A DNA stretch of 22,270 nt, taken from positions 1 through 22,270 of the forward strand of contig DAOOQE010000020.1 in the NCBI GenBank assembly GCA_035388585.1. The letters are read 5' to 3'. Made by a program: the position numbers and the translations under genes. Below, piece by piece: positions 84 through 18,972 of this stretch. Origin of the DNA: Clostridia bacterium. Lineage in GTDB: Bacteria > Bacillota > Clostridia > TANB77 > CAG-508. The notes under the pieces were generated by a model that was not told the DNA's origin, ran no database searches, and saw only the letters and a list, made by a program, of their open reading frames with translations. How positions within the stretch are numbered: the stretch's first letter is position 1; every line of letters begins with the position of its first letter.

Positions 84-136
84 GATAAATCTGGTTGCGG
101 GGGTAAGACTCGAACTTACGACCTTCGGGTTATGAG
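84..136 (-). repeat. att-like direct repeat, copy 1: 53 nt containing the 3' half of an initiator-type tRNA-Met(CAT) gene (a fragment, not a functional tRNA)
   Basis: The reverse complement reads TCGTCGGG-CTCATAA-CCCGA-AGGTC-GTAAG-TTCGAGT-CTTAC-CCCCGCA-A-CCA. That gives an anticodon stem with three G:C pairs, a CAT anticodon loop, a T arm, the 3' acceptor strand and CCA. The tRNA-like match spans 92-144. No D arm or 5' acceptor strand follows to the right. The 53 nt GATAAATCTGGTTGCGGGGGTAAGACTCGAACTTACGACCTTCGGGTTATGAG recur exactly at 12529-12581. Confidence 0.8.
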
Positions 137-422
137 CCCGACGAAGCATTTATTTAGCAATATTTCAAAGTGTTATAAAATGCTTTAAATTCTTGCTGCT
201 CTAAGTATATCTTTGTTTTAAAGTATCACAAATTATTTTGTAATATTGGGCATTATTTACCATTTTTCAGATTTCCGCCGTTTTTTCGCCGCTTGAATTT
301 ATGGCAATTTCTTCCATGTTTGATGGATTATGAAAAATATTTCGCCGCTTTTTTTAAGAACTTTTGGTTGCCACTTGGTATACATTTTGTCATACCACAA
401 GTTTACCATTGGTATACCATAC

Positions 423-590
423 TCATTTTATATTTTTAATATTTACTTCTTTAAAATCTAATTCATCTAAAATTATTTCTTCATTTCTATATTTTTCTTT
501 AACTATTCTTTTTGCATCTTCTTCACTAACCGCTTCCACTTTTATTGCTCTTTGTAATGTTTCTTCTATTTCTATCTTAAATTCTTGCAT
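423..590 (-). CDS. DpnD/PcfM-like small protein, 55 aa (below the ORF-track length cutoff)
   Basis: Hand translation of the minus strand gives MQEFKIEIEETLQRAIKVEAVSEEDAKRIVKEKYRNEEIILDELDFKEVNIKNIK*. The ATG is at 590-588 and is preceded by AGAGGTAGAAGT; the TGA is at 425-423. The pattern (F/Y)xIEIxETLxxxVxVEAxSxEEAxxxVxxxYxNxEIxLDxxDF matches my recollection of the DpnD/PcfM family found on Firmicutes mobile elements. Confidence 0.65.
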   Translation of the reverse strand: MQEFKIEIEETLQRAIKVEAVSEEDAKRIVKEKYRNEEIILDELDFKEVNIKNIK

Positions 591-671
591 ACTTCTACCT
601 CTATTCTTTTTAATATTTTGATCCTATTATAGATCAACTTTTTATTAATATCTATTTAATTCATAATTTAC

Positions 672-701
672 TTGACTTTTATCATTATTTAAGTGATTAA
701 T
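672..701 (+). promoter_or_regulatory. Candidate sigma70-type promoter of the backbone operon
   Basis: TTGACT (672-677), an 18-nt spacer, then ATTAAT (696-701) preceded by TG. The same elements are conserved in copy 2 (14065-14094). Confidence 0.4.
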
Positions 702-729
702 AACAACAATTTTTAAGGGGGTGAATTAT

Positions 730-1020
730 ATGAGCTTTAGAGAAGTTCGAGATGATATTTTTAGAGATTGGCTTGATTATCGTGAAGGAACTGAACTTGC
801 TTTTACTAATTCTGAAGATAAAAAACATGTGATACTTTTTGATGAAATTTGTGAAAATATTTTAAATAATGTTTCTGGAAGTAATTATGAATATATTCAA
901 AAACAATTAAATAAACTTGATGATAATTTTATGGATTATGTTGGTTATTGGAATGAAAAGTATTATAGAAATGGTTTCTGTGACGGCTTAGAATTGATAA
1001 TAGGCTGTTTAAATAAATAA
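730..1020 (+). CDS. Hypothetical 96-aa protein of the mobile-element backbone (C-terminal YYRNGFCDGLELIIGCL motif), function unknown
   Basis: ORF-track entry 721..1020. The ATG at 730 lies 7-8 nt after AAGGGGGTG, and the track's GTG at 721 sits inside that SD. The ORF is near-identical to 14123..14413. Confidence 0.75.
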   Translation: MSFREVRDDIFRDWLDYREGTELAFTNSEDKKHVILFDEICENILNNVSGSNYEYIQKQLNKLDDNFMDYVGYWNEKYYRNGFCDGLELIIGCLNK

Positions 1021-1035
1021 GGTGGTGAATTATAT

Positions 1036-1203
1036 ATATATGTTGTTAAAACTGCTTATAATGGCGAACAAATCTATCAAGTTTGTCCTAGCTGTGGCAA
1101 AAAGTTTAATTACTATCCAGCTATTTCTAGAAAAGATAATAAAACTGAAATCTGTCCAGAATGTGGTATGATGGAAGCTTTAGATAATTTCATAAGAGTA
1201 TAA
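1036..1203 (+). pseudogene. 4-Cys zinc-ribbon small protein, copy 1, with its start codon mutated (ATG to ATA); either a pseudogene or non-canonical initiation
   Basis: The frame reads I-Y-VVKTAYNGEQIYQVCPSCGKKFNYYPAISRKDNKTEICPECGMMEALDNFIRV*. Position-by-position alignment with copy 2 (same length, substitutions only) puts ATA at 1036-1038, where copy 2 has its in-frame ATG. The only nearby ATG (1040) is out of frame. The SD AAGGTGGTG is retained. Confidence 0.6.
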
Positions 1204-1207
1204 AAGT

Positions 1208-1245
1208 GACCAGGATTTCTCCTGGTCTTGTTCCTTATTTTTCAA
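1208..1245 (+). terminator. Rho-independent terminator of the backbone operon
   Basis: GACCAGGA (1208-1215), loop TTTC, TCCTGGTC (1220-1227), then T-rich TTGTTCCTTATTTTTC. The equivalent hairpin is found at 14601-14621. Confidence 0.65.
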
Positions 1246-1310
1246 GTTCTAGAAATTTATTTTCAATACTTCCTGTTTTAAGTTAGTTTTGTAAATATTT
1301 TTTCAATAGT

Positions 1311-1946
1311 TTATTTGTTTTCATTTCTACTTATTAATTCTTCTACAACTTTATACACTGCTGTGTAGGGATTACATTCTTCACTATCTAATGCTTGTCC
1401 TCTATCTAATTGATATTTTTCAAGCTTTTTGCTATTTGCTATTGCTTGTCCTGTAAAATCTTTAATAGTTAAATATGTATTATTATTTTTAGCATATCCT
1501 TCTACATGTTTTTTAAACTCATTTTGTAAATCATTATTAGATACAAATGATTTTGTTGTATATCCATAATGTAATAAAAACCATAATTCAAATATTGGAG
1601 TTGAAGTTATAATTTCAACCCCATTTTCCTTGGCTAACTTTTTTGCCTCTTCAATTTGTTTTTGTTTATTTTGATTTACATCTGTGTCAAAAACTGCATA
1701 AACTTTATCGTTTTCATCAATTTCTTCTATATCTAAATTTATATAATTTATTATATCTTGAACTATTCCTTTTGGATCTGTACTATTTCCTTTAGCAAAT
1801 TTTATGATACATTTTTTACTATGAAAATTTTTAAAATATAATTTTTCTGTTTTATTTAATCCTTCACATCCAATTATAACAAATGAATTTTTTTGTCTAT
1901 CTTTTTTATTTCTCTTTCTTTGTTCAAATTTTCTCATTCCTGCCAT
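1311..1946 (-). CDS. RloB-like (Toprim-like) protein, partner of the upstream AAA ATPase; AbiLii/RloB type
   Basis: The ORF contains FVIIGCEG..TEKLYF near the N-terminus, then VFDTD, then STPIFELWFLLHYGY. That last motif matches the RloB hallmark SNPCFE(L/F)W(L/F)LLHF. The ORF overlaps the ATPase gene. The start is either 1946 or the ATG at 1937, which forms an ATGA overlap with the ATPase stop. Confidence 0.75.
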   Translation of the reverse strand: MAGMRKFEQRKRNKKDRQKNSFVIIGCEGLNKTEKLYFKNFHSKKCIIKFAKGNSTDPKGIVQDIINYINLDIEEIDENDKVYAVFDTDVNQNKQKQIEEAKKLAKENGVEIITSTPIFELWFLLHYGYTTKSFVSNNDLQNEFKKHVEGYAKNNNTYLTIKDFTGQAIANSKKLEKYQLDRGQALDSEECNPYTAVYKVVEELISRNENK

Positions 1947-3229
1947 AGATTATTACCTGTTGCTACAAAAGGAATTGCACCATATCTACCATTTAAATAT
2001 CCTTTCTGAATATTCTCTGTTTTTCTTACAGAGAAATCATCTAACGGATATAATTCAGTAGCACCTTTCTTTGGATCTTTTTCTGCAAACCATATCTGAT
2101 CTCTTCTAAATAAATCTAATGATAATAAGTTTGTATCATGTGTATTAAATATAAGCTGTGCATTTGCTTTGTTTATTTCTGCATTATGGAAAAATTTTAT
2201 AATCATTTCTACTAAATTAGGATGTAAACTTCTTTCTATTTCATCTATTACTAATAGTTTTCCTTTTTCAAAAACATCCTTTAATATTGGTGCCATTGCA
2301 AATATTATTTTTGTTCCTGATGATTCATTACCTAAATCTAAGTTATATACTTTTGTATTACCTTCTTCATCTGTAACTTCATGAGACATTGTTATACTTT
2401 TAATTACTGTTGTTTTAGGTACAATTACATTAGATGGAACATTCATATTTTTTAATTGCATTATCATTCTAGCATCCATTTCTGCTTCTTCTATTTCTAT
2501 ATTATAATCTTTAATGATAATGTCAGCTTCTTCTAACAACTTTAATGTAAATTTCTTTAAACTTTCGTTTTCATCATCTTTATTATATGCTTCTATCGAA
2601 TATGGATTAAATTCATTTCCACCAATATAAGTATCAATCATATTTGCAAACCATAAATATGGAGCCCTTGTTTTATCATAATTCCATGTTGTTGCTGTTG
2701 ATAAAAATAATTTATTTTCTAAGTTTTGACTTTTTATTGCATTTAATTTAGCCTCATCTACCTGCAAGAATTTATAATCATTGCAATTTGTTCTTTCAAA
2801 TATTCTTGTTGGTTTTGCAGATAAATACTGATATAAATACTCTTCATAAACTTTCTCTTTATCTGCTTTAAATCCATATACATATTTATTTGAATTTGTA
2901 TAAAAAATAAATTCAAACTCACATGGTTCTTTTTTAGTATTTTCATCAAAAGCAAATGGTTCCATTTGAAGTAGTTTTTCTTCTGGCTGTCTATTATTAG
3001 ATAATCTTATCATCATTATTGCTGCAGAAAACGCTTTTATTAAATTCGTTTTTCCTGAAGCATTTGCACCATATAATGCCGTTGTTTTTAATACTCTTTC
3101 ATTTAATTCATCTATATTTATTATATTATCAAGATTTTCATCACCTATTCCAGCTTCCATACTAAAATCTTGTTTTTCTTTAAATGACTTGAATTTTTTA
3201 ACACTAAATTGAACTAACATTTCTATCAC
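1934..3229 (-). CDS. AAA_15/AAA_21-type ABC-like ATPase (RloA/AbiLi-like)
   Basis: Walker A is LYGANASGKTNL, Walker B is LLVIDEIERSLHP, and the H-loop-like motif is QLIFNTHDTNLL. SD AGAGGTGA sits before the ATG at 3229. Confidence 0.8.
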   Translation of the reverse strand: MIEMLVQFSVKKFKSFKEKQDFSMEAGIGDENLDNIINIDELNERVLKTTALYGANASGKTNLIKAFSAAIMMIRLSNNRQPEEKLLQMEPFAFDENTKKEPCEFEFIFYTNSNKYVYGFKADKEKVYEEYLYQYLSAKPTRIFERTNCNDYKFLQVDEAKLNAIKSQNLENKLFLSTATTWNYDKTRAPYLWFANMIDTYIGGNEFNPYSIEAYNKDDENESLKKFTLKLLEEADIIIKDYNIEIEEAEMDARMIMQLKNMNVPSNVIVPKTTVIKSITMSHEVTDEEGNTKVYNLDLGNESSGTKIIFAMAPILKDVFEKGKLLVIDEIERSLHPNLVEMIIKFFHNAEINKANAQLIFNTHDTNLLSLDLFRRDQIWFAEKDPKKGATELYPLDDFSVRKTENIQKGYLNGRYGAIPFVATGNNLWQE

Positions 3230-3329
3230 CTCTTTATATTATTATACGCTTTTATTCAAAAATTGCAAGTAATTTTAATATTATTTTATTTTTTTTTGCA
3301 TTTTTTATGCAAATTTATTAGAAATATTA

Positions 3330-3358
3330 TTGATTTTTAATATTATTCTTGTTATAAT
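3330..3358 (+). promoter_or_regulatory. Candidate promoter for the small basic protein gene
   Basis: TTGATT (3330-3335), a 17-nt spacer, then an extended -10 TGTTATAAT (TATAAT at 3353-3358). Confidence 0.5.
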
Positions 3359-3430
3359 TATCTTATCATCATATTTCTAGAATGAAATCAAATGAGGAAG
3401 GATTTTTATCCTAGAAAGGTGGTGATATAT

Positions 3431-3577
3431 ATGGCAAGATGTAAAACAACATCTGCAAGGGTTGCTTCAAAAGCTTCAAAGGCTTTAAGAAGTAGTAGCA
3501 CTTCAAAGACTACAAAGTCTATTGCTGGTTCTGCTCTTTCACAGAGACAACCTAATCATACACATAAGAGAAAATAA
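3431..3577 (+). CDS. Small basic Ser/Lys/Ala-rich protein (48 aa), function unknown
   Basis: The ATG at 3431 is preceded by AAAGGTGGTGA. The track start at 3392 has no SD. The product is MARCKTTSARVASKASKALRSSSTSKTTKSIAGSALSQRQPNHTHKRK. A promoter lies upstream and a terminator downstream. Confidence 0.55.
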   Translation: MARCKTTSARVASKASKALRSSSTSKTTKSIAGSALSQRQPNHTHKRK

Positions 3578-3587
3578 TTAAGTGAAA

Positions 3588-3623
3588 AGAGCAGACTCTA
3601 TAAAAAGTCTGCTCTATATTTTT
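3588..3623. terminator. Hairpin terminator between convergent genes (possibly bidirectional)
   Basis: AGAGCAGACT (3588-3597), an 8-nt loop, AGTCTGCTCT (3606-3615), then ATATTTTT. An A-rich run precedes the stem. Confidence 0.7.
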
Positions 3624-3647
3624 ACCACTGTCACATGGGTATATGTC

Positions 3648-5732
3648 TTATTCATCTATCACCTTTTTTAATTCAAATTCATAGTATTTCTTTAACATTT
3701 CTATAAATTCATCTGTATTATCTTTTTTGCAAATACTTCTTATATATAATTCCATGTTATTTACTAAAATTTTTGTATATGAATAATTTTTTTGTATCCA
3801 TTCATGATTTTCTAATACAATTAATTCATGTGAGTACATTTTAAAATTTCTTATTTCTTCTGGTATTTCATTGTACTCATTAATATTATTATAAATTATA
3901 TAATCTTGTACTAATGCTCTAACTAATTTAGCATTATCATAATATACTTCTTTATATAACCATTTTGATTTTCCATTTTTTCCATTTACGTCTTCTGGTG
4001 ATTTTACATTAATATCGCTTTCAGAAATACTCAACATTTTTTCTATTTCTTTTATCAGCATTTCTTTTCTTGCTTTTATTTGATCTATATTCCAAGTAGT
4101 ATTACCTCTATCATAGTCATCGATTATCTTTCTTGTAAATTCAAATGAAGTAATTCCTGTTTTATTATTTCCATCTTCATCCAAGCCTTTATAAATTCTG
4201 ATTTTTTCATCAAAACCACAATTCAAAGCTTCTTCATTTTTTATATCTTGCAATAAAGCCATATTACCTAATCCATTAAGTTCTTGCATTGCATCTTCAT
4301 CATTAATATAATTCCATTCATCTTTTTGCCCAAATGCTCTTGGTAAAATATGATCCATATGTAATTTACCATCTAACGAATAAAATGCTGTATTTGTTTT
4401 TTCTCTATTTTCATATTCTAATGATAACATTAATGGTTTTAAAAATTTTTCATTATATACATCATTTTTTAATGCATCATATGTTTTAGCAATCATCCTT
4501 CTAGAAATAATTAATCTATTTAAGTCTTCTTTTATATCTTCTATACTATTTCCATTTACAATTGATTCTATTAATTTAAATGATGTTTGTTTTATTTGAT
4601 TTAATGTACACCCTGAAATCAAGCAAATATAAAAAAATCTTCTAATTATTTTAAATAATTCTTCTTTTTTTAAATAGTTTACTGCATATGCACTTGTTAG
4701 TGCTGTCATTACATATGCTCTCCATGGTATATATCTTAAGCTTAATATTTCTGCTTCATTTGATTCATATACCTTTTTTAATGAATTTGAAAAACTATGT
4801 AATTCATCTACTAATTCATATATATCTGATTTTGTTATTATTTCTCTTAATTCATCAACAACCTGTTTCTTTGGGTTTGCTTTTAATTTATAGTATTCAT
4901 AAAAAACTATAAAATCATCAATTTTAAATCCATATTGTTTAGACATATCTTCTATGTATTTCCAATTATTATTAAATATTTGTTTCCCTGTTTCATCATC
5001 TTGATCGTACTTTCCAATAATATATGACTTAACTATATCTGACGGTGATAAATCTAATCCTCTATCATTAAGAACTTGGAAAAGCTTAATTGCAAATGAC
5101 TGATTTGTACACTCAATTTTTATAATATTTGTAGAATAAAATATGTAATTAATAAAATTATCTAAATCTTCTGCATTCAATTCTGACAATTTGTTATAAA
5201 AAAATACAGCAGAATTAATATATTTATATTGTGGATCGTCATATTTTAATTCTTTTTTTGTTGGTTCACTCATATCAGAAAATGTATCACAATTAATTAC
5301 AATATCATTAAATAATGAATCATATTTAGGATCTGTTTGTAATTGCAAACGATTTCTTCTTCCTTGAAACATTATACAATTTTGTATTTTTTCTTTGTCA
5401 GCCACAAATATAGCATCATTATCTTTGTTGATTTCTGGAAAATCTTTTAATAATACATTCATAAGTATTATTAGTGTTGTTATTCTCTGTTGTCCATCTA
5501 TTAATTCATAATATCCTTTTCCATCATTTACTACTACAATCGATCCTAAAAAGTAACAGTCATTTCCTTCACTTTTATTTTGATATGCTTCATATAAATC
5601 TTCCCATAATGCATCTAATTGGTCATTTGTCCAACTATATTGTCTTTGATAATTAGGTATTTTATATATTCCATCACAAGAAAAGATTTCACTTATTGTT
5701 TGATTTATTGGTTTAAATGTTTCTATAGCCAT
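3648..5732 (-). CDS. GmrSD-family type IV (modification-dependent) restriction enzyme: N-terminal DUF262, DUF1524 His-Me finger, plus an extra C-terminal region
   Basis: The DUF262 motifs are IPNYQRQYSW and DGQQRITTL. The DUF1524 motif is HMDHILPR...GNMALLQ...N. The likely start is the ATG at 5732, because the track's GTG at 5741 lies inside the SD GAGGTG. Confidence 0.8.
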   Translation of the reverse strand: MAIETFKPINQTISEIFSCDGIYKIPNYQRQYSWTNDQLDALWEDLYEAYQNKSEGNDCYFLGSIVVVNDGKGYYELIDGQQRITTLIILMNVLLKDFPEINKDNDAIFVADKEKIQNCIMFQGRRNRLQLQTDPKYDSLFNDIVINCDTFSDMSEPTKKELKYDDPQYKYINSAVFFYNKLSELNAEDLDNFINYIFYSTNIIKIECTNQSFAIKLFQVLNDRGLDLSPSDIVKSYIIGKYDQDDETGKQIFNNNWKYIEDMSKQYGFKIDDFIVFYEYYKLKANPKKQVVDELREIITKSDIYELVDELHSFSNSLKKVYESNEAEILSLRYIPWRAYVMTALTSAYAVNYLKKEELFKIIRRFFYICLISGCTLNQIKQTSFKLIESIVNGNSIEDIKEDLNRLIISRRMIAKTYDALKNDVYNEKFLKPLMLSLEYENREKTNTAFYSLDGKLHMDHILPRAFGQKDEWNYINDEDAMQELNGLGNMALLQDIKNEEALNCGFDEKIRIYKGLDEDGNNKTGITSFEFTRKIIDDYDRGNTTWNIDQIKARKEMLIKEIEKMLSISESDINVKSPEDVNGKNGKSKWLYKEVYYDNAKLVRALVQDYIIYNNINEYNEIPEEIRNFKMYSHELIVLENHEWIQKNYSYTKILVNNMELYIRSICKKDNTDEFIEMLKKYYEFELKKVIDE

Positions 5733-5951
5733 TTTTTTCACCTCTATTATTTTTAATCTGTTATTTCTCTAATAAATTGATCTAACTTAATGCTTTCTAT
5801 TCAAAAAAATTCACTAACATTTGATATCTTGTTAGGATCGCTTCCCTCATTAGTAACAATCCCTCATTTTACTTTTATTGCAATTGCTATAAAAATGGAT
5901 CACCATTTGAACTTGATTTTTTTCCTTTAACTTAAAAATACTGTTGTATAG

Positions 5952-6458
5952 CTATTTTACACAAGATAGATATTCTTTATATTTTTTTAACATCCTTATT
6001 TTTATAAAATCTTCCATATATTTATAATTTATACTTCCGATATTTGTAACAGGTAATAAAATTTTCTCTCTTTTTATGCTTTCCTGATTTCCCATTTTTC
6101 CATAACAATATTTTGAACATGTCCTTCTTATTATTTGAGAAAAAAAGATACCTGAATATCTATTAATTTGTTCATTATATAACAATAATATTGATGATCC
6201 AGCTCCACCTCTGCCCAAAAAATTAATGTTTTGATAAAAAGAACTTCCATCTACAGGACTTACAGTTATACAATTTCCTTTGTCTAATTCTTTATCTTTT
6301 TCTAATGGTTCACAAAATCTTATTACACCATTATTGACATTTCCAGAAGCAATAAATGGTATTTTTCCATCTTGATACTGTTTTTCTGAACGTGCAATTG
6401 ATCTTCTAACATTGAATATATTACCCACAAAGAATTCTTTCCATTCAACGTCATTCAA
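5952..6458 (-). CDS. Specificity (S) subunit, second target-recognition domain; an out-of-frame continuation of 6472..7035, probably not independently translated
   Basis: It begins (L)NDVEWKEFFVGNIF, the typical TRD entry motif, and ends ILLPV..NYKYMEDFIKI..KKYKEYL, which parallels the C-terminus of the upstream half. It has only a TTG start, no SD and no in-frame ATG until far inside. Confidence 0.7.
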   Translation of the reverse strand: MNDVEWKEFFVGNIFNVRRSIARSEKQYQDGKIPFIASGNVNNGVIRFCEPLEKDKELDKGNCITVSPVDGSSFYQNINFLGRGGAGSSILLLYNEQINRYSGIFFSQIIRRTCSKYCYGKMGNQESIKREKILLPVTNIGSINYKYMEDFIKIRMLKKYKEYLSCVK

Positions 6459-6471
6459 TTCTGAAATTTGC

Positions 6472-7035
6472 TTATAATGCGTTACCCCCCCCTAGTTTTT
6501 CAAGGGTTTCAGTGCAATATTTAATATATTCTTTTCTTTTTCTTAATTCTATTTCTTTAATATATTCTTCCATAAATCTATAATCTGGTTTTTCATTTTC
6601 ATCTATAGGCAGTAAAATACTTTTTCTTGGTAAATCAGTACTTGATAATTGATTTCCATATGAGCTGTCTCTTGTATTGTTATTAATTGCTGTAATTAAA
6701 AACAATGCCAAATTTTCACTTAATTCTCTATCAATTAGTTTTAATGCATGTACCTTCATATCCAATGTTGCCTTTCCTTTTTGATAGAATGAATTCCCTA
6801 AAAAGTTAACACTTATAAAATTTGAGAATTCTCTTTTATTTTTATCATTGGTATCCCTGTAGCCATCTACTCCATTATTTTGTGATGTGACTGTTATTCT
6901 TGGCGTTTTTCCTTCATTTAAATTTGCTTTGTTGATATACGCACCTGTAGGAACCTGAGTGCCATCGTTATCCTTAGTTTCAAAAATTTCGCCTATTTTA
7001 AATTCTTTCCACTTCTTTTCGCTAAGACTATTCAT
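6472..7035 (-). CDS. Specificity (S) subunit, first target-recognition domain, truncated just after a G8 tract
   Basis: The sequence is MNSLSEKKWKEFKIGEIFE... and ends SILLPIDENEKPDYRFMEEYIKEIELRKRKEYIKYCTETLEKLGGGNAL*. The ATG at 7035 overlaps the methyltransferase stop by 8 nt. The track start at 7056 is a TTG. Confidence 0.75.
   Translation of the reverse strand: MNSLSEKKWKEFKIGEIFETKDNDGTQVPTGAYINKANLNEGKTPRITVTSQNNGVDGYRDTNDKNKREFSNFISVNFLGNSFYQKGKATLDMKVHALKLIDRELSENLALFLITAINNNTRDSSYGNQLSSTDLPRKSILLPIDENEKPDYRFMEEYIKEIELRKRKEYIKYCTETLEKLGGGNAL
6485..6492 (-). repeat. Homopolymer C8 (G8 on the coding strand) at the junction of the two S-subunit halves
   Basis: Counted directly: gttaCCCCCCCCtag. 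This is the longest G/C run in a very AT-rich window, and it sits 10 nt upstream of the S-half-1 stop. Confidence 0.95.
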
Positions 7036-8944
7036 TTTCAGTATCCTCACTTTCAAACATGTATTTTCTCCCTTGCATTATCATTGAAAATTCAAAAGAC
7101 AAATAATCACCAACTGTTTTTTCAAACTCACTTGCTGTTGGAATTTCATCATTAAAATAATAATAACTATGTAACCATTCATCCGTTGGTTCTATTGTTG
7201 TTTTAACACAAAATTTTGTATCATCCTCTATTTTATCAAACCAAACATCAAGCAAATGCTGTTTTTTATCAATTGCTGATTCCGTTTCTATTAATCCAAT
7301 ATGTGGGGCTACTTTATAACCATCATTTTCAAAATTTATAAATTTGCATTCTTTTTCTTTTGGATGTGGCTCACCTGTTGTAAAAATAGCTATACATGGC
7401 ATTGTACCAACTCCATAAAAAGTATCCCCATTTAATGTAATTACCCCTTCTAAAGTATGGTGTTTTAGTATATTTTCTTTTATTGCTTGTTCTTCTTTTG
7501 TTTTTCCCGTTACTGAAGACTGTGGAATAATTACAATTGCTCTTCCTCTTGATACAAGACTATCTAATAAATGCTCTACAAAATTAATTTCATATAAATT
7601 AGGATTTTGTTTTGATCCTTGTGAATAAGGAGGATTCATCATTCCAACTGTTGCACCTTTTAATTGTAATTTATTTGAATCTTGTTTCAAAAAATCATCA
7701 CAATGTAAATTGCTTTTTCCATCTCCTCTTAATATCATATTAGTTGTTGCAATTGTAAACATATAATCTTGTAATTCATATCCATGTAATTGATCTCTTT
7801 TTATTGATTTCTTTTGATTATCATTTTTAGCTTTCTTTAACATATTATGCATTGCTGAAACTAAAAAGCCCGCGGTTCCACAACAGGGATCTAATACAAC
7901 ATCTTCTGGTTTTAAATCTATTAAATCACAAAATAAATTACATATGTGTTTTGGTGTTAAGACTATTCCTAAGCTTTGACCATCACTTCCAGAATAACTC
8001 ATAAACTCTCCATAGAATCTTCCTAAATAATCTTCACTTGTATTATTATATCTAATTGTTTTATATAATTTATTATGCAGAAATTCAGTATAATATCTTA
8101 ATGGAGTAACTCCAAGTGTTTCATTTATCTCATTTAAAATCACAGTATTTTTTATTATAGCAAATTGACTTAATAATTTATCTTTTTTGGTTTCTGGAGA
8201 TACCTGGGATCTTCTTAGGTTATCTTTAATTGCTGAATATATTTTTGCACCATCAGTATTTATTTCATCTCCATTTAAATCATTGATAGAAAAATTTTTA
8301 TAATCTATTTCTTTTAAAGCCAAAAGAATTCCGCTTACTACTAATGGTTTGTCTTTATCACTTAAATTCCCATAATTTCTTAAATTTTCATGCAATTCTT
8401 TAGCATCTTTTAATATTTCTTCAGTTGTTTTTTCATCATCTGTTGCTTCTTTTAATATTTCTCTTATATAGTACTCATCTATATTATCTTCATTAAAAGA
8501 TATGAAACTTTCAACCTCTGGCAAATCCATAAAATATTCTCTTCCATCCAAATAAATTGGTTTTATTATGTGCCTTTTTTCATCTCCACTTATACCAAAT
8601 GCAATTGCTTTCTTATAATGAGTATTTTCTAATATATGTTTAGCATAGAAATATGCACCATTTAAGGCATAATCAGTTACTGAATTAACACTCATATCCA
8701 ATATTCCATTTTCATTGAATTTTGCCTGTTTATCTACACTTGCCTTATCTTCAATAACAATTACAAAATCTTTTACAACGCCACAATATTCAGGAAATCC
8801 TGTATTTCCTGTTCTTTTTTTTGAAGCTGTTTTTAATGCATTATCTAATGCTACTATTTGACTTCCTTGTGGATCTAAATTCAAATTTGCATCTTTTAAT
8901 AAATCATATACCCATAGATCTGTTCTAACTTCCTTCTTTGCCAT
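7028..8944 (-). CDS. Fused PD-(D/E)xK-like N-terminal domain + gamma-class N6-adenine DNA methyltransferase (BcgI-A-like type IIB architecture; alternatively an atypical HsdM)
   Basis: The methyltransferase motif I is VLDPCCGTAGFL and motif IV is GMMNPPYSQG. The N-terminus has GFPEY-x13-VIVIEDKAS, a PE...ExK nuclease-like signature. The gene is translationally coupled to the S gene downstream and the HTH gene upstream. Confidence 0.7.
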   Translation of the reverse strand: MAKKEVRTDLWVYDLLKDANLNLDPQGSQIVALDNALKTASKKRTGNTGFPEYCGVVKDFVIVIEDKASVDKQAKFNENGILDMSVNSVTDYALNGAYFYAKHILENTHYKKAIAFGISGDEKRHIIKPIYLDGREYFMDLPEVESFISFNEDNIDEYYIREILKEATDDEKTTEEILKDAKELHENLRNYGNLSDKDKPLVVSGILLALKEIDYKNFSINDLNGDEINTDGAKIYSAIKDNLRRSQVSPETKKDKLLSQFAIIKNTVILNEINETLGVTPLRYYTEFLHNKLYKTIRYNNTSEDYLGRFYGEFMSYSGSDGQSLGIVLTPKHICNLFCDLIDLKPEDVVLDPCCGTAGFLVSAMHNMLKKAKNDNQKKSIKRDQLHGYELQDYMFTIATTNMILRGDGKSNLHCDDFLKQDSNKLQLKGATVGMMNPPYSQGSKQNPNLYEINFVEHLLDSLVSRGRAIVIIPQSSVTGKTKEEQAIKENILKHHTLEGVITLNGDTFYGVGTMPCIAIFTTGEPHPKEKECKFINFENDGYKVAPHIGLIETESAIDKKQHLLDVWFDKIEDDTKFCVKTTIEPTDEWLHSYYYFNDEIPTASEFEKTVGDYLSFEFSMIMQGRKYMFESEDTENE

Positions 8945-9163
8945 TTATAATTCCTCCCCTTTATCATTTTTCAATTCCATTATATCTTCTATATTACATT
9001 CTAATACACTACAAATTTTGGCTAACACCTCTACTTGTACCGACTCATTTTTACCTAATTTAGCCATTGCATTTGTAGTGATTTTAGCTTTCTCACAAAG
9101 CTCCGTTTTATTGATTTTCTTGTCTATCATAAGCTTCCATAATTTATAATAACTTATTGTCAT
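8945..9163 (-). CDS. XRE-family helix-turn-helix regulator (controller/C-protein-like), first gene of the R-M operon
   Basis: The 72-aa product contains INKTELCEKAKITTNAMAKLGKNESVQVEVLAKICSVLECNIEDI, a typical HTH_3/HTH_26 pattern. Its stop abuts the methyltransferase ATG. SD GGAGG precedes the ATG at 9163. Confidence 0.75.
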   Translation of the reverse strand: MTISYYKLWKLMIDKKINKTELCEKAKITTNAMAKLGKNESVQVEVLAKICSVLECNIEDIMELKNDKGEEL

Positions 9164-9199
9164 TTTCGACCTCCATTTTGATAATTTTTATACAAGAGT

Positions 9200-9228
9200 A
9201 TTCTATCATTTTCGACATTTTTTATCAA
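9200..9228 (-). promoter_or_regulatory. Candidate promoter of the HTH/R-M operon
   Basis: The minus strand reads TTGATA (9228-9223), a 17-nt spacer, then TAGAAT (9205-9200). The spacer contains one copy of an 11-nt repeat that recurs at the start codon. Confidence 0.55.
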
Positions 9229-9266
9229 GGAAATCTTGAATATTTCAAATATAAATTTAATATCGT

Positions 9267-10923
9267 GAAGTGAAAAAATAAATGCAAGTATCAATAATAT
9301 ACATTGCAATAAGTCTTACATTGTGTCTTAATGTAGAACATAATGCAATTTTGTTATAATTAAAAAGTAAATGTTTTTGGTAGAAATGGAGTAATAATAT
9401 GATTGAAAAAGGAAAACAAATCACATTAAACCAAAGGATAAGAATTGAAGAAATGTTAAACCAAAGACGTAGAAAATATGAAATTGCAAATGAATTAGAA
9501 AAAAAACAATCAACAATTGCAAGGGAAATTAATCGTCACAAAATTCTAAAACCACATAATATTTACAAATCAGCCAATATGTATAATTGTAAATTTTTTG
9601 TTAATTGCAAAGTATGTACAAATAAATGCCGTATTTTTCAACCAATTTCATGCAAAGAAAGAGATAGAAATATTGGTGTATGCAATAATTGTTCAAAACT
9701 TAAAACATGTAATTTAGACAAATATTTTTATTATGCGGATAAAGCACATGAACAGTATAAATAAACTTTACAAGATTCAAGACAAGGAGTTAATTTAAAT
9801 ACATCAGAATTAATTGAACTTGCACATATAATTTGCCCATTAATAAAAAAAGGACAATCAGTTTACACCATATTAAATAATCACCCCGAAATAAAATTCT
9901 GTGAAAAAACAATATATAATTACATTGAAATGGGATTATTTAAGGATTGGGGCATTACAAATTTAACATTAAAGAGAAAAGTAAAAAGAAGAATTTCAAA
10001 AAAACAATTAAAGAAACGAAAGGAGCCATATAATTACAACGGAAGAACATATACTGATTATTTAGAATTTAAAATTCAAAATCCAAATATAACAACAACA
10101 GAAATGGATACAGTATATAATAATCAATCTGGTCCATACATACAAACATTTATATTTGAAAATACTGAGTTTATGATTGGTGTATTACATACAGAAAAAA
10201 CATCGGATTCAATGTCAGAAAGTCTTAATAAATTTCATGAAAAATTAACTAATAAAGAATATGAACAATTATTTTCAGTATTATTAACAGACAGAGGAAC
10301 GGAATTTATAAAGTCTCAACAATTTTAAATAAACATACATACAGGAGAAATAAAAGGAAAAATATTCTATTGTGATCCAATCCAGTCAAGCCAAAAACCA
10401 CACGTAGAAAACAATCATAATTTTATTAGAGAAATTTTACCAAATGGAAAAAGTTGGAATCATTTAACCCAAGAAAAATTAGATTTAATGTTTTCTCATA
10501 TAAATTCTACACCAAGAGAAAATTTCGCTGGAAAAACACCTTATGAGATATTTACATTTATCTACGGTGAAGAATTAGCACAAAAGTTAAATATACAAAA
10601 GATTGCAAAAGACGAGGTTACCACAACTCCCCGTCTCTTAAAATAAGTTCATTATGATAAAATGAACAACTTAAATTAATATAAATCCAAAAACATTTGC
10701 ATAACCGAAAATTTAATTGCAAAGCAAAATAGCATTTACTTTTACCGCAAAAAAATTAATGCGATTTTGCTTATTAGTCGAGCAAATTTTCTTTGGAATA
10801 TATATTAATTTTACAAAAAAAAAGCAAAAAAAGCAATATTTTCGTTGAAAACACTGCTTTAATCTTGCATTAAATCATACAACTTGCATTTACTTTACAG
10901 AATTGCATTTAACTTTTTACTTC
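9267..10923 (+). mobile_element. IS30-family insertion sequence (degenerate)
   Basis: An imperfect terminal inverted repeat, GAAGTGAAAAAATAAATGCAAGTAT (9267-9291), pairs with the reverse complement of 10899-10923 (GAAGTAAAAAGTTAAATGCAATTCT), about 20 of 25 matches. There are multiple subterminal (A/T)TGCA(A/T)T motifs at both ends. The transposase reading frame lies inside. Confidence 0.55.
9399..10646 (+). pseudogene. IS30-family DDE transposase gene interrupted by two in-frame TAA codons (9762-9764 and 10326-10328)
   Basis: A single reading frame runs from 9399 to 10646. It has an N-terminal HTH (QSTIAREINRH), a Cys-rich linker, D in EMDTVY, D in LLTDRGTEF and E in HVENNHNFIRE, and ends PRENFAGKTPYEIF. 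Track ORFs 9399..9764 and 9930..10328 are in the same frame, as is the unlisted tail. Confidence 0.75.
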
Positions 10924-11298
10924 TCCTGTATATTGAATATTTTTTGTTATAATCATATCTATAGCTGCTCTCAGTATCCTAAAAAAGCCAGTATTTTTTT
11001 CCGGTTTAATAATATTGATTGGGATGGTTAATCGCCTCAATCATTTTTTTTGCAAAAAAAGTAATGCCCTTATTTTAAATACATTATAAAATTAATTCTC
11101 CAAAACAAATAATAAAGTGGTATTAATAAGTGCGTAACAATTGTATCAATAATTTATTAAATTTAAAATGTGTATTTATAAAAAGGTCAAAAATTCAAAA
11201 AATAATATTTCTATATATTTTGAAACAAAATGCAAAGGAATCTTATCATCTGCATATGTTTATTAAACGAATCAATAATCAAAATTTTATCGATATTT

Positions 11299-11652
11299 TT
11301 AATAAAACATTAAAACTGCAACAATAAAAAGATGATAATTCATTTCTGAATTATTTCTTTTGAATATATCATCAGGATTATATTTTTCAATTTTTGCTTG
11401 TTCCATTAATTCTTTATCATATTTTTCTTTTGCTTCTATTCTCTCTTTTTCATAAGATGTTGCCCAATATTTTTTATTTTGAGACACACCAATATCTCTT
11501 AGATGGTTTCTATGGGTATTCAATCTCAAATTATTAGTAGAAAAGTTGGACATTCCAGTGTTCAGGTTACTGATAAATTTTATTCTCATTTCTTTGATGA
11601 GGAATTTAAAAGTGTTTCTACTGTTATGGATGATGTTTTTGCAAATGTTCAT
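11299..11652 (-). CDS. Hypothetical ORF (117 aa), doubtful; possibly a gene remnant
   Basis: There is an open frame only, with no SD before any candidate start. Its last ~50 nt are homologous to window positions 4-55. Confidence 0.3.
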   Translation of the reverse strand: MNICKNIIHNSRNTFKFLIKEMRIKFISNLNTGMSNFSTNNLRLNTHRNHLRDIGVSQNKKYWATSYEKERIEAKEKYDKELMEQAKIEKYNPDDIFKRNNSEMNYHLFIVAVLMFY

Positions 11653-11700
11653 TAAAATAGACGAGATTCAATAATTGATCCCGCCTATTTTTTATTTTTC

Positions 11701-12375
11701 CTATAATCTTAAATCACATAAATATTTTCTTATTTTTACTAAAAGTTTTTCCTTTGTTTCTTTTATTAAATCTTCTTTTTCTTTAATTTCTTCCCACTCT
11801 TTATTTGTCATTTTCAAATCTCTACAACTGCTAAAACTTTCGTTATATTTAACATCAAATTCATACATTGCATACTTATCACCAATTGCAAAACATTCCC
11901 TTCTTATTAAATTTAAATCATTATAAAATTCTTCCATGTAAAACGGTGCATATTTATCAATGCAAATTGAAAACTCATTATACCCCTTACAAAAATTTTC
12001 ATATTTATTCTTTTTGTATTCTTCTAATTCTTTCTCATCAATCGGAACGTTTTCTATGCTCATTGGATATAATATTATTGTTTTTAAATAGCAATCATTT
12101 AGCTTAGGCCATATCTCCATATATATTTTAAATTCGTTCTCATAATTTATTTTTGATACGTATAGTGCTTTTTCCTCTATTTTATCCAATTTATTTAATC
12201 TTTCATTTATTTTTCCCTTAAATTCTTCAACATCTTTACTCATTTTATTTTTATATTTTTCTTCTATATTATTCGCTAATATATTGGCTAAATATTTAGA
12301 TATTCCTATGATAATCGTTCCCATTCCTCCCATTGAAACTATAATAATAGATATAACATTAATTGCATTTTCCAT
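11701..12375 (-). CDS. Membrane-anchored hypothetical protein (N-terminal TM helix + coiled-coil/alpha-helical domain)
   Basis: The N-terminus is AINVISIIIVSMGGMGTIIIGISKYLANIL, which is hydrophobic, followed by a charged helical region. SD-like AAGGAATGAGAAG precedes the ATG, and an extended -10 (TGATATAAT) lies upstream. Confidence 0.6.
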   Translation of the reverse strand: MENAINVISIIIVSMGGMGTIIIGISKYLANILANNIEEKYKNKMSKDVEEFKGKINERLNKLDKIEEKALYVSKINYENEFKIYMEIWPKLNDCYLKTIILYPMSIENVPIDEKELEEYKKNKYENFCKGYNEFSICIDKYAPFYMEEFYNDLNLIRRECFAIGDKYAMYEFDVKYNESFSSCRDLKMTNKEWEEIKEKEDLIKETKEKLLVKIRKYLCDLRL

Positions 12376-12528
12376 AGTCTTCTCATTCCTTTTTTCTTTT
12401 TTCTTTTTTCATATTATATCATCTTCTTTATTGAAAATAAACTCCTCTTTACTTATATAAAAAATTCTCCTCCAAGATTTCCGCCATTTTTTTCAAGACA
12501 AAAAAAATCAAGGAACTTAAAATCCCCT

Positions 12529-12581
12529 GATAAATCTGGTTGCGGGGGTAAGACTCGAACTTACGACCTTCGGGTTATGAG
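12529..12581 (-). repeat. att-like direct repeat, copy 2 (tRNA-Met 3' fragment; tRNA-like part 12537-12581)
   Basis: It is exactly identical to 84-136 and diverges immediately after the anticodon loop (TGCCGAAGG here, CCCGACGAAGC in copy 1). It has no D arm or 5' acceptor. Confidence 0.8.
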
Positions 12582-12787
12582 TGCCGAAGGTCTAATATTT
12601 GCTATTATTTCATTTTGTTTTAAAATGGTGCAATTCGTTGCAAAAGTAAGTATTAAAGTGTTATATTTTAGTATCAATTATTTTGCGTTATTCCCCCTTA
12701 TTTTCCATTTTTGAAACTTTCGCCACTTTTTCGCCACCTATTTTTATGGTGGAATATGGATATTGGGGGTATGGAAAAAGCTGGAGG

Positions 12788-13516
12788 TTATCCTGCGTTA
12801 TTTTTAAAAATTTCATATGATTCTTTTGATATTTTTTCAAATTCTTCCTTATCCATTATTATCTTTTCCAAATTATTTTTATTCAAATCAAATATATAAA
12901 TTTCATGTAATAAACATACATATATTATATTAAATTTTCTTTTTGCATCTTTCTGAATATTATTTATTTTTACCAATTCATTTTCTGCTTCTTCTTTTGT
13001 AACTAATATCGGTGTAAATATAAATAATCTATTATCTAAAATTTCTGAGTTATAATGATCATTTAATTTCTCTAATTTTTCATTAATACTTTTATTAACA
13101 TATGAAAAATCATCATTATAAACTGGAATAATATAAAAATAATTTTCATTAAATCCAAAGCTATCACGATAGTTTTCACCAAATATAATTCTAGCTAACT
13201 CTGGTGTAATAACTCTTCCTCCATTTTTTTCAAATTTCTTATTAAATTGCTTTATTTTTGAATCAGGTACAGGCTTCTTTACATTTTCTAAATCTCTCCA
13301 AAATTTAGTTCCTTCACTATTTCTTGTAACTTCAATTCCAATACTATTTTTTAAATCCTGCCAATCTGGTTCTTCTTTATCTTCAAACTTATCAATATCT
13401 ATTTGTATATACTCTTTTAATAATTTAAATGCAAATAGTTCAAAATATTTCTTTTCTATATCATGTTTCATAACAATATTCACTTCCTTTACCACTGCCA
13501 CATGGGCATATTTCAT
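12788..13516 (-). CDS. Hypothetical protein with a possible PD-(D/E)xK-like signature
   Basis: The candidate motif is EEPDWQD-x6-IGIEVTR, a PD...E-x-(K/T)-like pattern, and it is weak. Two starts are possible: 13516, an ATGA overlap with the upstream pseudogene, or the ATG at 13471, preceded by AAGGAAGTGA. Confidence 0.55.
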   Translation of the reverse strand: MKYAHVAVVKEVNIVMKHDIEKKYFELFAFKLLKEYIQIDIDKFEDKEEPDWQDLKNSIGIEVTRNSEGTKFWRDLENVKKPVPDSKIKQFNKKFEKNGGRVITPELARIIFGENYRDSFGFNENYFYIIPVYNDDFSYVNKSINEKLEKLNDHYNSEILDNRLFIFTPILVTKEEAENELVKINNIQKDAKRKFNIIYVCLLHEIYIFDLNKNNLEKIIMDKEEFEKISKESYEIFKNNAG

Positions 13517-14006
13517 TTAAATATACTTTCAAATTCTAACGGAATTATATCTTCATAAATAACCGTGAACTCAGGATTCACTTGTTTATTCTCATGGTAA
13601 TGTCCTAAGAACCATTTCTTAAATTCCGTCTTTTCATATATTTCCTGTAAATAATCCATCAATTCATCTTTTCTATATTTTCCAATTATAGCTTGTATAT
13701 TGGTTGGACAACAATGTGAAAATATATAATCAACTTTAAAATTAACTTTTTCTAAATTTCTAATTCCATTTTCCATTTCTTCTTTTGTTGGCATTTCTAG
13801 ATCCTACCATGAAAAATCTCTAATTCTAAAATATGCCCCTCTTTTTCTCTACTACTTTCTTCTTCAAATGTCCATACCCCACCAAAATCTCCGCATATAA
13901 TAACATAGTCATTCTTTGTCATTTCTTTTTGTATTGGAAACTTTTCTGTTGTAAATCTTTCAAAATTTGAATGTGTATCTCCTGTTATATAAATCATAAC
14001 TATCAC
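13513..14006 (-). pseudogene. Calcineurin-like metallophosphoesterase with an internal deletion (split into 69-aa and 93-aa ORFs)
   Basis: The N-terminal piece has IYITGDTHSNF and VIICGDFGG (motifs I and II). The C-terminal piece has FSHCCP and LGHYHENK. The central GNHE-containing region expected between them is absent, and the two pieces are in different frames, separated by a TAG. Confidence 0.6.
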
Positions 14007-14064
14007 TCCTCTTCGGTATTATACTATATTCATCTATTAATATCTATTAAAATTCCATAAATAC

Positions 14065-14094
14065 TTGACTTTTGGCTTTATTTAAGTGATTAAT
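14065..14094 (+). promoter_or_regulatory. Candidate promoter of backbone operon, copy 2
   Basis: TTGACT (14065-14070), an 18-nt spacer, then ATTAAT (14089-14094). This is conserved with copy 1. Confidence 0.4.
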
Positions 14095-14122
14095 AACAGC
14101 AATTTTTAAGGAGGTGAATTAT

Positions 14123-14413
14123 ATGAGCTTTAGAGAAGTTCGTGATGACATTTTTAGATATTGGCTTGATTATCGTGAAGGAACTGAACTTGCTTTTACT
14201 AATTCTGAAGATAAAAAACATGTGATACTTTTTGATGAAATTTGTGAAAATATTTTAAATAATGTTTCTGGAAGTAATTATGAATATATTCAAAAACAAT
14301 TAAATAAACTTGATGATAATTTTATGGATTATGTTGGTTATTGGAATGAAAAGTATTATAGAAATGGTTTCTGTGACGGCTTAGAATTGATAATAGGCTG
14401 TTTAAATAAATAA
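14123..14413 (+). CDS. Hypothetical 96-aa backbone protein, copy 2
   Basis: The ATG at 14123 follows AAGGAGGTG. It has one amino-acid difference (D to Y) from copy 1. Confidence 0.75.
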   Translation: MSFREVRDDIFRYWLDYREGTELAFTNSEDKKHVILFDEICENILNNVSGSNYEYIQKQLNKLDDNFMDYVGYWNEKYYRNGFCDGLELIIGCLNK

Positions 14414-14428
14414 GGTGGTGAATTATGT

Positions 14429-14596
14429 ATGTATATTATTAAAACTACTTATAATGGTGAACAAATCTATCAAGTTTGTCCTAGCTGTAACAAAGAGTTT
14501 AATTACTATCCTGCTATTTCTAGGAAAGATAATAAAACTGAAATCTGTCCTAAATGTGGTATGATGGAAGCTTTGGATAAATTTATAAGAGCATAA
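14429..14596 (+). CDS. 4-Cys zinc-ribbon small protein (55 aa), intact copy
   Basis: The product is MYIIKTTYNGEQIYQVCPSCNKEFNYYPAISRKDNKTEICPKCGMMEALDKFIRA*. It has a CPSC...CPKC pair, SD AAGGTGGTG upstream, and a TAA at 14594-14596. Confidence 0.7.
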   Translation: MYIIKTTYNGEQIYQVCPSCNKEFNYYPAISRKDNKTEICPKCGMMEALDKFIRA

Positions 14597-14600
14597 AAGT

Positions 14601-14636
14601 GACCAGGAATTTTTCCTGGTCTTATATTATTTTTCC
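14601..14636. terminator. Hairpin terminator between the convergent backbone operon and the NTPase gene
   Basis: GACCAGGA (14601-14608), a 5-nt loop, TCCTGGTC (14614-14621), then TTATATTATTTTTCC. Confidence 0.65.
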
Positions 14637-18050: not shown

Positions 18051-18092
18051 AATATCTAAACAATTATTTTTTAATCGTTAATTATTTTGCTT
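18039..18092 (-). terminator. Possible terminator after dpnB (long-loop hairpin + T-run)
   Basis: The minus strand reads AAGCAAAATA (18092-18083), a 28-nt loop, TATTTTGCTT (18054-18045), then TTTTTTG. The loop is long for an intrinsic terminator. Confidence 0.4.
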
Positions 18093-18106
18093 TCTTTAGT
18101 GACTAT

Positions 18107-18970: not shown

Positions 18971-18972
18971 AT

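Follow-up and report, generated by a model that had tools for sequence, protein, structure and literature searches.

The 22,270-nucleotide (nt) stretch analysed here as a whole, referred to below as the window (positions 1–22,270 of contig DAOOQE010000020.1, assembly GCA_035388585.1, Clostridia bacterium), is very probably a tandem array of two decayed integrative mobilizable elements (IMEs) that accreted at the gene for the initiator tRNA, tRNA-fMet, and that carry an exchangeable slot for defence genes. Accretion would have occurred by site-specific recombination at the anticodon loop of this tRNA gene. Both islands would belong to one large family, present in uncultured low-GC gut Clostridia-type bacteria, in which the gene for a 96-amino-acid (aa) protein, named p96 here, would be the terminal, inward-pointing gene beside the attachment (att) core. 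Read in the orientation of p96, a full member of the family would contain an att core, arm repeats, an optional TnpV gene, p96, a terminator hairpin and ∼6–10 kb of convergent cargo. Beyond the cargo would follow a relaxase or MobC gene, TnpV, Phage_rep_org_N and HTH_17 and, in the lineage of the window, a small HTH_26 gene; the far end would be formed by a tyrosine integrase gene, a replacement 3′ part of the tRNA and a second att core. The slot between the p96 terminator and the HTH_26/replication module would hold mostly anti-phage systems, swapped among related elements by homologous recombination in their conserved flanks, and whole elements would pile up through repeated integration into the regenerated tRNA. 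With integrase and transfer genes lost, the two islands of the window would now be similar to cis-mobilizable elements (CIMEs), movable only with help in trans. Related loci that were compared with the window bear labels of the type L086; L082 and L083 cover the flanks of the source array.

When the two halves of the window were compared by blastn, positions 643–1243 and 14035–14635 proved to be 93.9% identical over 604 nt. A first-pass annotation had described here one module in two copies, A and B, each followed by different cargo on the opposite strand; this description stood, and the cargo calls were upheld by Pfam and PADLOC. The similarity of the copies stops ∼16 nt past the hairpin that closes the module. 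Of the proposed parts, p96, a zinc-ribbon gene and the G+C-rich hairpin were all recovered, the last with a terminator-like score on both strands. The promoter fared less well: a promoter-like stretch is conserved in both copies (TTGACT at 672 and 14065), though it is a weak consensus match that the promoter scan did not pick up. The zinc-ribbon open reading frame (ORF) has 55 codons, is in frame with p96 and begins five codons past the TAA stop of the latter. Its start codon has been lost in copy A, since ATG became ATA there, and the gene in this copy is either silent or reliant on non-AUG initiation or readthrough; ATG is kept in copy B and in L086, L087 and L088. These three loci are close copies of the module (p96 96–98% identical, zinc-ribbon gene present), so that the module does occur outside the window. 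The p96 gene alone was found at 541 loci in GTDB species genomes; the locus-level counts given here rest on the best 80 of these. A search with tblastn found the zinc-ribbon gene next to p96 in none of the 80, and it was therefore rejected as a family-wide part of the module; it is lineage-specific, which leaves p96 as the only family-wide anchor.

The true borders of the islands are the tRNA-fMet att repeats rather than the module. A perfect direct repeat of 53 nt (84–136 and 12529–12581) corresponds, in reverse complement, to the 3′ portion of the initiator tRNA-fMet, from the anticodon stem-loop through the T arm to the CCA end. These 53 identical nt open a second block common to both islands (84–304 and 12529–12749, 73.5%), which contains the attachment sites. 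No complete tRNA was found within the window, and an Rfam search of the window detected no known RNA. The source contig, however, runs a few hundred bases beyond the window and, ∼130 nt past the window end, carries a live, complete tRNA-Met(CAT) gene that has its own promoter (L082 18276–18351) and contains a third att core. The order along the array is displaced fragment 1, island 1 (∼121–12565), fragment 2, island 2 (∼12566 to the tRNA) and the live tRNA. Fragments 1 and 2 are identical, with the T stem GTAAG/CTTAC, and the live tRNA has GTAGG/CCTAC, a compensatory pair. This suggests that each incoming element brings a new 3′ part of the tRNA, in which case that part of the working tRNA would be element-derived DNA. 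The 23 nt to the left of fragment 2 resemble the trailer of the live tRNA and the sequence to the left of fragment 1 does not, which indicates that fragment 1 abuts the original chromosome. The chromosomal flank of the array includes a heliorhodopsin gene (L083 6620–7399), ∼2 kb upstream of the window start. Over the ∼170 nt past each core the islands are 73% similar and carry short direct repeats (TTTCGCCGC in island 1, TTTCGCCAC in island 2). The motif TTTCGCCRC has four sites in the window, all of them in these two arm regions, with 0.03 expected by chance. Different but analogous repeat pairs occupy the same place in L086, L099 and L102, and the repeats are probably arm-binding sites of the integrase.

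The same architecture was seen in the relatives. The att core, CCTTCGGGTTATGAG, consists of 15 nt of the tRNA-fMet anticodon stem-loop. In 62 of the 80 GTDB loci the exact 15-mer precedes p96, once per locus and always in the same orientation. With up to one mismatch, it precedes 70 of 82 p96 copies at a distance of 169–307 nt, or of 569–698 nt where TnpV intervenes. L102 and L104 are 99.98% identical over 10.5 kb from the core and have unrelated chromosomal flanks, and L099 and L100 behave likewise; in both pairs the homology starts exactly at (A)CCTTCGGGTTATGAG, 219–249 nt upstream of the p96 start. The same element in different chromosomal contexts was thus observed for relatives, not for the two islands of the window. 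Each lineage has its own direct repeat pair between core and p96. In 22 loci of one sub-lineage the conserved block extends from the core through p96 and two hairpins, after which identity is at background. At 6.3–9.6 kb, beyond the cargo and on the cargo strand, the relatives carry a relaxase or MobC gene, TnpV, Phage_rep_org_N and HTH_17, and their tyrosine integrase reads towards the next core. Pfam was used to identify TnpV, RepA_N and Phage_integrase, the last in L032, L077, L006, L004 and L012 (directly upstream of the next core in L032 and L077); Relaxase PF03432 was found in L099 and MobC/NikA in L089. Since the relatives carry integrase, relaxase, TnpV and a replication module, the elements are IMEs. 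In L086, a Phage_rep_org_N gene follows HTH_26 where the window has fragments of an insertion sequence (IS).

Two further observations were made on the family. A minority backbone has integrase, RepA_N, TnpV and p96 co-directional and directly downstream of a complete tRNA-Pro, without the tRNA-fMet core (L003 and L054, tRNA-Pro at ∼8571–8775; L004 and L012 have the same variant backbone), a sign that integration specificity may have switched in the course of the family's history. In two related genomes, two members with different cargo and 75% p96 nucleotide identity (L099 3064–8837 and L104 19–4315) occupy the same place beside a type II-A CRISPR-Cas9 locus.

The genes that follow p96 are as variable as the first-pass annotation had supposed. 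Of the GTDB-locus p96 copies, 70 are followed by a gene of at least 80 aa; in all 70 that gene lies convergent to p96, and these genes fall into 52 families. Directly after nearly every p96 stands a strong hairpin built like a terminator, whose sequence belongs to one of several unrelated types. Several cargo sets, three by one count, were found even among the five close copies of the module: AbiL, GmrSD and a restriction-modification (R-M)-like operon behind copy A of the window; a 1130-aa NTPase and DpnII behind copy B; a SMEK_N/NPHP3_N NTPase and a type III-like R-M system in L086 (L087 has the same start, after which its contig ends); and AbiL, DpnD, T5orf172 and HsdR in L088. More distant kin carry further sets.

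Judged by their PADLOC matches, the slot occupants are mostly of the defence type. At a threshold of E ≤ 1e-5, 13 of 20 sampled next-genes match PADLOC (eight of ten recurrent families, SoFic being a further match, and five of ten random singletons), many of them over their full length. Taken together, the occupants match 297 PADLOC models. These include PD-T7-3, HamB (Hachiman), IetS, PDC-S04, PDC-S20, PDC-S51, PDC-S53, PDC-M11B and SoFic, as well as AbiD, AbiL, Ppl, PbeA-like proteins and SAVED effectors, and the matches are often full-length. The Pfam content of the occupants is made up of KAP and other NTPases, helicases, Fic, SAVED and subtilases. The position of the 1130-aa NTPase is suggestive of a defence gene, a suggestion somewhat strengthened by a full-length, 29%-identical homologue in a neighbouring island of the same family in another species (L032 891–4268). 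A kinship with the SMEK_N NTPase that occupies the same position in L086 was considered and rejected, the match being weak and confined to the surroundings of the P-loop.

Uncharacterised families do recur in the slot. One first-in-slot set without a PADLOC match comprises a 328-aa and then a 351–369-aa protein (L043 10329–12363, L050, L056); the member of the latter family that was tested, from L043, has Fic and winged helix-turn-helix (wHTH) domains. Another is composed of a 192-aa protein, a 143-aa protein and two small genes (L037 10342–12078, L075), and the tested member of the 143-aa family, from L037, has a ThsB-type TIR domain.

On its far side the slot of island 1 is bounded by HTH_26. 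Past the cargo, the window becomes similar to L086 again at 8961, a position that all but coincides with the HTH_26 stop codon, and the HTH_26 region is 86% identical to L086 9687–9989 and recognisable in L116 (15661–15858) and L003 (18347–18544). The gene, of 65–72 aa, heads the cargo strand behind the four unrelated cargo sets of these loci and the window. The slot is thus flanked on both sides by conserved sequence, with p96 and its hairpin on the left and HTH_26 on the right. Judged from this arrangement, HTH_26 and its upstream region may act as a built-in promoter and regulator of the plugged-in cargo. As to how cargo is exchanged, the two left flanks found among the close copies (DpnD type and Metallophos type) occur with the cargos in all four combinations. 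The promoter allele tracks the left flank: alleles of one type differ at 1–2 positions, those of different types at 12–17 of 86. Between the two window copies, a tract of 268 nt in p96 shows no difference at all, as against 13 of 86 positions upstream of it and 17 of 185 downstream. Such mosaicism would be the signature of homologous recombination and gene conversion within conserved flanks; no evidence for a dedicated cassette-insertion mechanism was found.

Table 1. Features of the window, in order of position
Feature	Positions	Strand	Basis or details
Displaced tRNA-fMet 3′ part (8-nt trailer, acceptor 3′ strand, T arm); left flank of island 1	84–120	−	
att core copy 1 (tRNA-fMet anticodon stem-loop); left end of island 1	121–136		ACCTTCGGGTTATGAG
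att arm region, island 1	137–360	+	TTTCGCCGC at 284–292 and 340–348; TTTCCGCCG at 272–280
DpnD/PcfM-like small gene between arm and p96, island 1	423–590	−	Pfam PF14207, E = 2.6e-16
Module copy A	643–1243	+	p96 730–1020; zinc-ribbon ORF 1036–1203 (start ATA); hairpin 1208–1227
Island 1 cargo slot	1311–8944	−	Pfam and PADLOC
AbiLii/RloB	1311–1946	−	
AbiLi/AAA_21	1934–3229	−	
GmrSD	3648–5741	−	
R-M-like operon	5952–8944	−	two half-size S subunits 5952–7056; 638-aa N6_Mtase fusion 7028–8944
Backbone HTH_26 gene and upstream region; right slot border	8945–9263	−	gene 8945–9163; PF13443, E = 5.7e-19
IS30-like transposase in three ORFs, interrupting the backbone	9399–10646	+	HTH_38 match, first ORF
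Tyrosine integrase C-terminal remnant, island 1	11470–11640	+	tblastn with L077 integrase, residues 340–396 of 400, E = 4e-7
224-aa membrane/coiled-coil protein, right end of island 1	11701–12375	−	phrog_26391 only, E = 1.3e-12
tRNA-fMet 3′ fragment 2 and att core copy 2; island 1/island 2 junction	12529–12565 and 12566–12581	−	
att arm, island 2	12582–12749	+	TTTCGCCAC at 12718–12726 and 12729–12737
242-aa gene without assigned function, between arm and p96, island 2	12788–13516	−	
Broken metallophosphoesterase gene	13513–14006	−	two ORFs; tblastn to intact Metallophos family F13
Module copy B	14035–14635	+	p96 14123–14413; zinc-ribbon gene 14429–14596 (ATG intact); hairpin 14601–14621
Island 2 cargo	14658–20651	−	
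1130-aa P-loop NTPase	14658–18050	−	Walker A GEGGIGKS; no Pfam or PADLOC family
DpnII system: endonuclease and two methylases	18107–20651	−	
C-terminal remnant of SoFic-type HTH-Fic gene	20977–21054	−	tblastn 73–83% identity, residues 282–307 of family F3
222-aa gene without assigned function, right end of island 2	21602–22270	−	

Several features listed in Table 1 are signs of decay: the integrase remnant, the SoFic remnant, the IS30 fragments and the broken metallophosphoesterase gene. The first comprises 57 residues of the L077 integrase family, which is Pfam Phage_integrase. The SoFic remnant, of 26 codons, lies in an otherwise ORF-free stretch of island 2 and belongs to family F3, which matches PADLOC SoFic and Pfam Fic; it appears to be the trace of a former cargo. 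The metallophosphoesterase gene is intact in L088 (9117–9875, 252 aa). Of the backbone genes, island 2 has kept p96 only, along with the broken metallophosphoesterase gene and the SoFic remnant. The assignment of the second and third transposase pieces to IS30 is presumed from a reading of the ORFs. The left flank with the DpnD/PcfM-like gene is shared with L086 and L116.

As for the remaining genes, the 638-aa N6_Mtase fusion has an unassigned N-terminal part of ∼300 aa, and the operon to which it belongs has no separate HsdR; in our reading the layout of this operon recalls BcgI-like type IIB enzymes. These islands and their surroundings repeatedly contain small DpnD/PcfM-like genes (window 423–590, L083 5594–5818, L088 12850–13014, L116 5830–5988), and Metallophos pairs (families F13/F16) recur at island edges (L005, L009, L047, L066, L080). 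The 224-aa protein matches nothing in Pfam, PADLOC or NCBIfam. The 224-aa and 222-aa genes at the right ends of the islands are not homologous, and were rejected as a single conserved end gene.

A number of results weigh against a tandem array of decayed IMEs with a defence slot. The first concern mobility: no intact integrase was found in either island by tblastn with the integrase of relatives, island 2 lacking even a remnant; no relaxase or MobC homologue was found in the window with queries from the relatives' backbones; and neither island has a recognisable oriT (origin of transfer), a feature that the tools used cannot recognise. For these reasons the present-day mobility of the window islands is unproven. 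Neither an empty site nor an excised circle was found: one scan of JGI metagenomes for the left junction gave no exact match for an empty site or for other occupants, in a collection that does not return even the source contig. Recognisable tRNA T-arm/acceptor sequence stands left of the core in only ∼18 of 70 p96 loci. The other loci abut unrelated DNA, and many insertions are therefore not in tRNA-fMet but at non-tRNA sites or next to eroded fragments. The slot of island 2 is bounded on one side only, since the HTH_26 border is absent there. The defence character of the slot is also less distinctive than its PADLOC matches might imply: control genes 4–5 positions upstream of p96 match PADLOC about as often, with five of ten as compared with the 13 of 20 slot genes, and 70 upstream proteins match 169 models, as compared with 297 for the slot, single models being promiscuous. 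These upstream neighbourhoods often hold other islands or CRISPR-Cas loci. The first-pass annotation had taken position in the slot as independent evidence of a defence role; the slot is indeed rich in PADLOC matches, but the argument is weakened because the whole neighbourhood is rich in defence genes and single PADLOC models are promiscuous. Finally, no search, of sequence or of structure, assigned a function to p96.

The p96 family comprises 432 protein clusters in a large protein collection, and the best 80 loci are nearly all labelled uncultured Clostridia, Clostridium or similar low-GC metagenome-assembled genomes (MAGs). In the plasmid collection PLSDB no relative of p96 was found. A metagenome scan yielded distant relatives only and no further close copies. 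In a search of a representative library with p96, all 379 clusters obtained were of small, single-domain, stand-alone proteins, and hence no informative fusions were available. An AlphaFold run on a shallow alignment was unusable (predicted local distance difference test score, pLDDT, 59) and was replaced by a run with more diverse sequences (pLDDT 92.5). In the resulting model three short helices are predicted to pack on a 45-residue C-terminal helix that bears the invariant motif YWNEKYYRNGF. Foldseek comparison of this model with PDB and BFVD gave no significant neighbour; the model thus confidently predicts a fold that is an orphan. If a role had to be guessed, it would be in element maintenance, as a recombination accessory or in entry, outside the defence systems.

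One alternative is that p96, with or without the zinc ribbon, is a functional partner of the slot cargo, whether as a shared regulator, as a factor for immunity or against toxins, or in counter-defence, which would account for its constant company of defence genes. Its constant association with the slot in a fixed geometry, its small size and acidity (pI, isoelectric point, 4.5) and the weak matches of the zinc ribbon to Lar-like restriction-alleviation and FmdB-like regulator PHROGs and to PADLOC PDC-M14A would all fit, as would a recent preprint that reports a concentration of defence and counter-defence genes near the oriTs of genomic islands. We nevertheless consider this unlikely: p96 is convergent to the cargo with a terminator between them, and hence is not co-transcribed with it; a single p96 allele pairs with unrelated systems; what p96 consistently accompanies is the att core, not any one family of cargo; and profile searches of Pfam, NCBIfam, PADLOC, PHROGs and PDB sequences, like Foldseek, matched it to no known regulator or anti-defence protein.

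It is very unlikely that the islands are phage satellites or prophage remnants, with a P4/PICI-type (phage-inducible chromosomal island) hotspot whose cargo is spread by helper-phage packaging. Conserved flanks around a variable defence cargo are the pattern of P2/P4 hotspots, and this resemblance, the Phage_rep_org_N and HTH_17 genes of the relatives and the match of TnpV to a PHROG speak for phage ties. In contrast, no relative of p96 was found in IMG/VR (2.9 million contigs) or the GenBank phages (50,697 records), no annotated context contains capsid, terminase or portal genes, and the relaxase and MobC/NikA genes of the relatives indicate conjugative mobilisation. Of the hosts that the first-pass annotation had named for its hotspot, integrative elements, here IMEs, were thus retained and satellites and prophages were not.

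Homologous recombination as the means of cargo exchange was weighed against site-specific capture at the hairpin behind p96, by an integron-like or HUH-type cassette. In every close copy the homology does end no more than ∼16 nt from a perfect hairpin, and 22 loci (e.g. L008, L010, L011, L013 and L015) share an 18-bp perfect hairpin, AATCCAAAGTTTTTTC..GAAAAAACTTTGGATT, ∼10 nt past the p96 stop, with a column identity of 0.97 compared with 0.72–0.95 within p96, which is more than a plain terminator would be expected to require. The hairpins, however, are of at least five unrelated types and have the A-tract/T-tract anatomy of terminators, and in the cases examined the far cargo end has no repeated hairpin or attC-like site. 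Instead, the far border is a conserved gene, HTH_26, at whose stop codon homology resumes. The unit repeated in tandem is the whole att-p96 block rather than cassettes, breakpoints fall inside the module, as homologous recombination predicts, and the backbone showed neither an integron integrase nor an HUH nuclease. Capture by cassette is accordingly held to be highly improbable. Lastly, two copies 13.4 kb apart on a metagenome contig might suggest that a segment of a host locus was simply duplicated or that the assembly is chimeric. Both can be practically discounted: the two-copy arrangement was recovered in two independent assemblies (JGI 3300010355 and ENA ERZ27257431), and is therefore no assembly artefact, copy A with its cargo is present in a third (JGI 3300009782), the copies differ by ∼6%, have different flanks and an att fragment before each, and p96 occurs at hundreds of loci in other genomes.

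Read as decayed IMEs in tandem, the islands belong to a well-known kind: integrative elements that carry defence genes in an exchangeable slot and accrete in tandem at a tRNA gene. The closest parallel is the accretion of CIMEs and IMEs described for ICESt1-type elements of streptococci (PMC5704250), in which att-bounded units also stand in tandem at one target gene. A three-step model was proposed there: an element integrates, it decays to a CIME that keeps its att sites, and a second element then enters the att site with the gene end. As in those CIMEs, decayed units keep attL and attR, lack integrase and transfer genes and are joined by a later element at the att site of the gene end; both window islands are bounded by cores and neither has an intact integrase or relaxase, and their relatives carry, like the streptococcal elements, a tyrosine integrase and relaxase or MobC. 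Unlike ICESt1, the present elements, which are known from sequence alone, reside in uncultured low-GC gut Clostridia-type MAGs and target the anticodon loop of the initiator tRNA; their backbone contains p96, TnpV, Phage_rep_org_N and HTH_17/HTH_26, and their cargo is almost wholly defence.

With the P2-like prophage, P4-like satellite and E. coli integration hotspots (Hochhauser et al. 2023, PMC10121019) they share a conserved backbone flanking a variable defence slot, near-identical elements that differ in that slot, often several systems per element and an anchor that aids the discovery of systems. In contrast to those hotspots, they are not phage-related, their anchor p96 is an orphan, and their cargo faces this anchor convergently and lies, in the lineage of the window, downstream of and co-directional with a conserved small HTH gene. 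Tycheposons of Prochlorococcus (bioRxiv 10.1101/2020.12.28.424599) are likewise tRNA-targeting tyrosine-recombinase elements with adaptation or defence cargo, in which each new integration drives the older elements further inward, so that partial tRNAs and pieces of integrase genes stay behind; the elements described here differ in their conjugative mobilisation modules (relaxase/MobC) and in phylum and habitat, the life-style being compared from the preprint text only. Pipolins, or bimodular defence platforms (PMC11551731), are also integrative, have direct repeats and serve as a reservoir of exchangeable defence genes, but the present elements have no PolB, have another backbone and are much smaller (about 10–27 kb). 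Nor do they resemble an integron or cassette array: no integrase of the integron type came to light, what is repeated is the att-p96 block as a whole, and the hairpins are terminators of varied sequence. They are also unlike phage satellites (P4-like, PICI and capsid-forming PICI, cf-PICI), with no packaging or capsid Pfam families in the annotated contexts and no matches in viral collections. A search of the literature on TnpV together with defence or mobilizable elements found nothing specific to the p96 element family.

These results leave the current view of how defence islands form unchanged. The array does offer a clean case, found in nature, of an island that grows by accretion and decays at an essential tRNA gene, with the 3′ part of the tRNA itself apparently exchanged for element DNA. 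Otherwise the finding is of practical value: it provides an anchor for mining and, in p96, an orphan hallmark protein that merits testing. Few approaches have led to as many new anti-phage systems as searches guided by the anchor genes of cargo slots, as the work on P2/P4 hotspots showed. The p96 anchor opens poorly sampled hosts, the uncultured low-GC gut Clostridia, to such searches, with the 15-nt att core and the p96 gene as the handle; occupied slots number in the hundreds, and PADLOC leaves roughly a third to a half of their first genes unmatched. It is possible, though we lean towards doubting it, that p96 is the hallmark of an unrecognised, widespread family of defence-dedicated elements, that the slot is its plug-in site and that the uncharacterised recurrent occupants are new anti-phage systems. 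Were this so, the new systems would be the 1130-aa NTPase family, the L043-type pair of 328-aa and Fic proteins and the L037-type set with the 192-aa and TIR proteins, and p96 may have a new role at the element end, as an accessory factor for recombination or entry or as a counter-defence protein.

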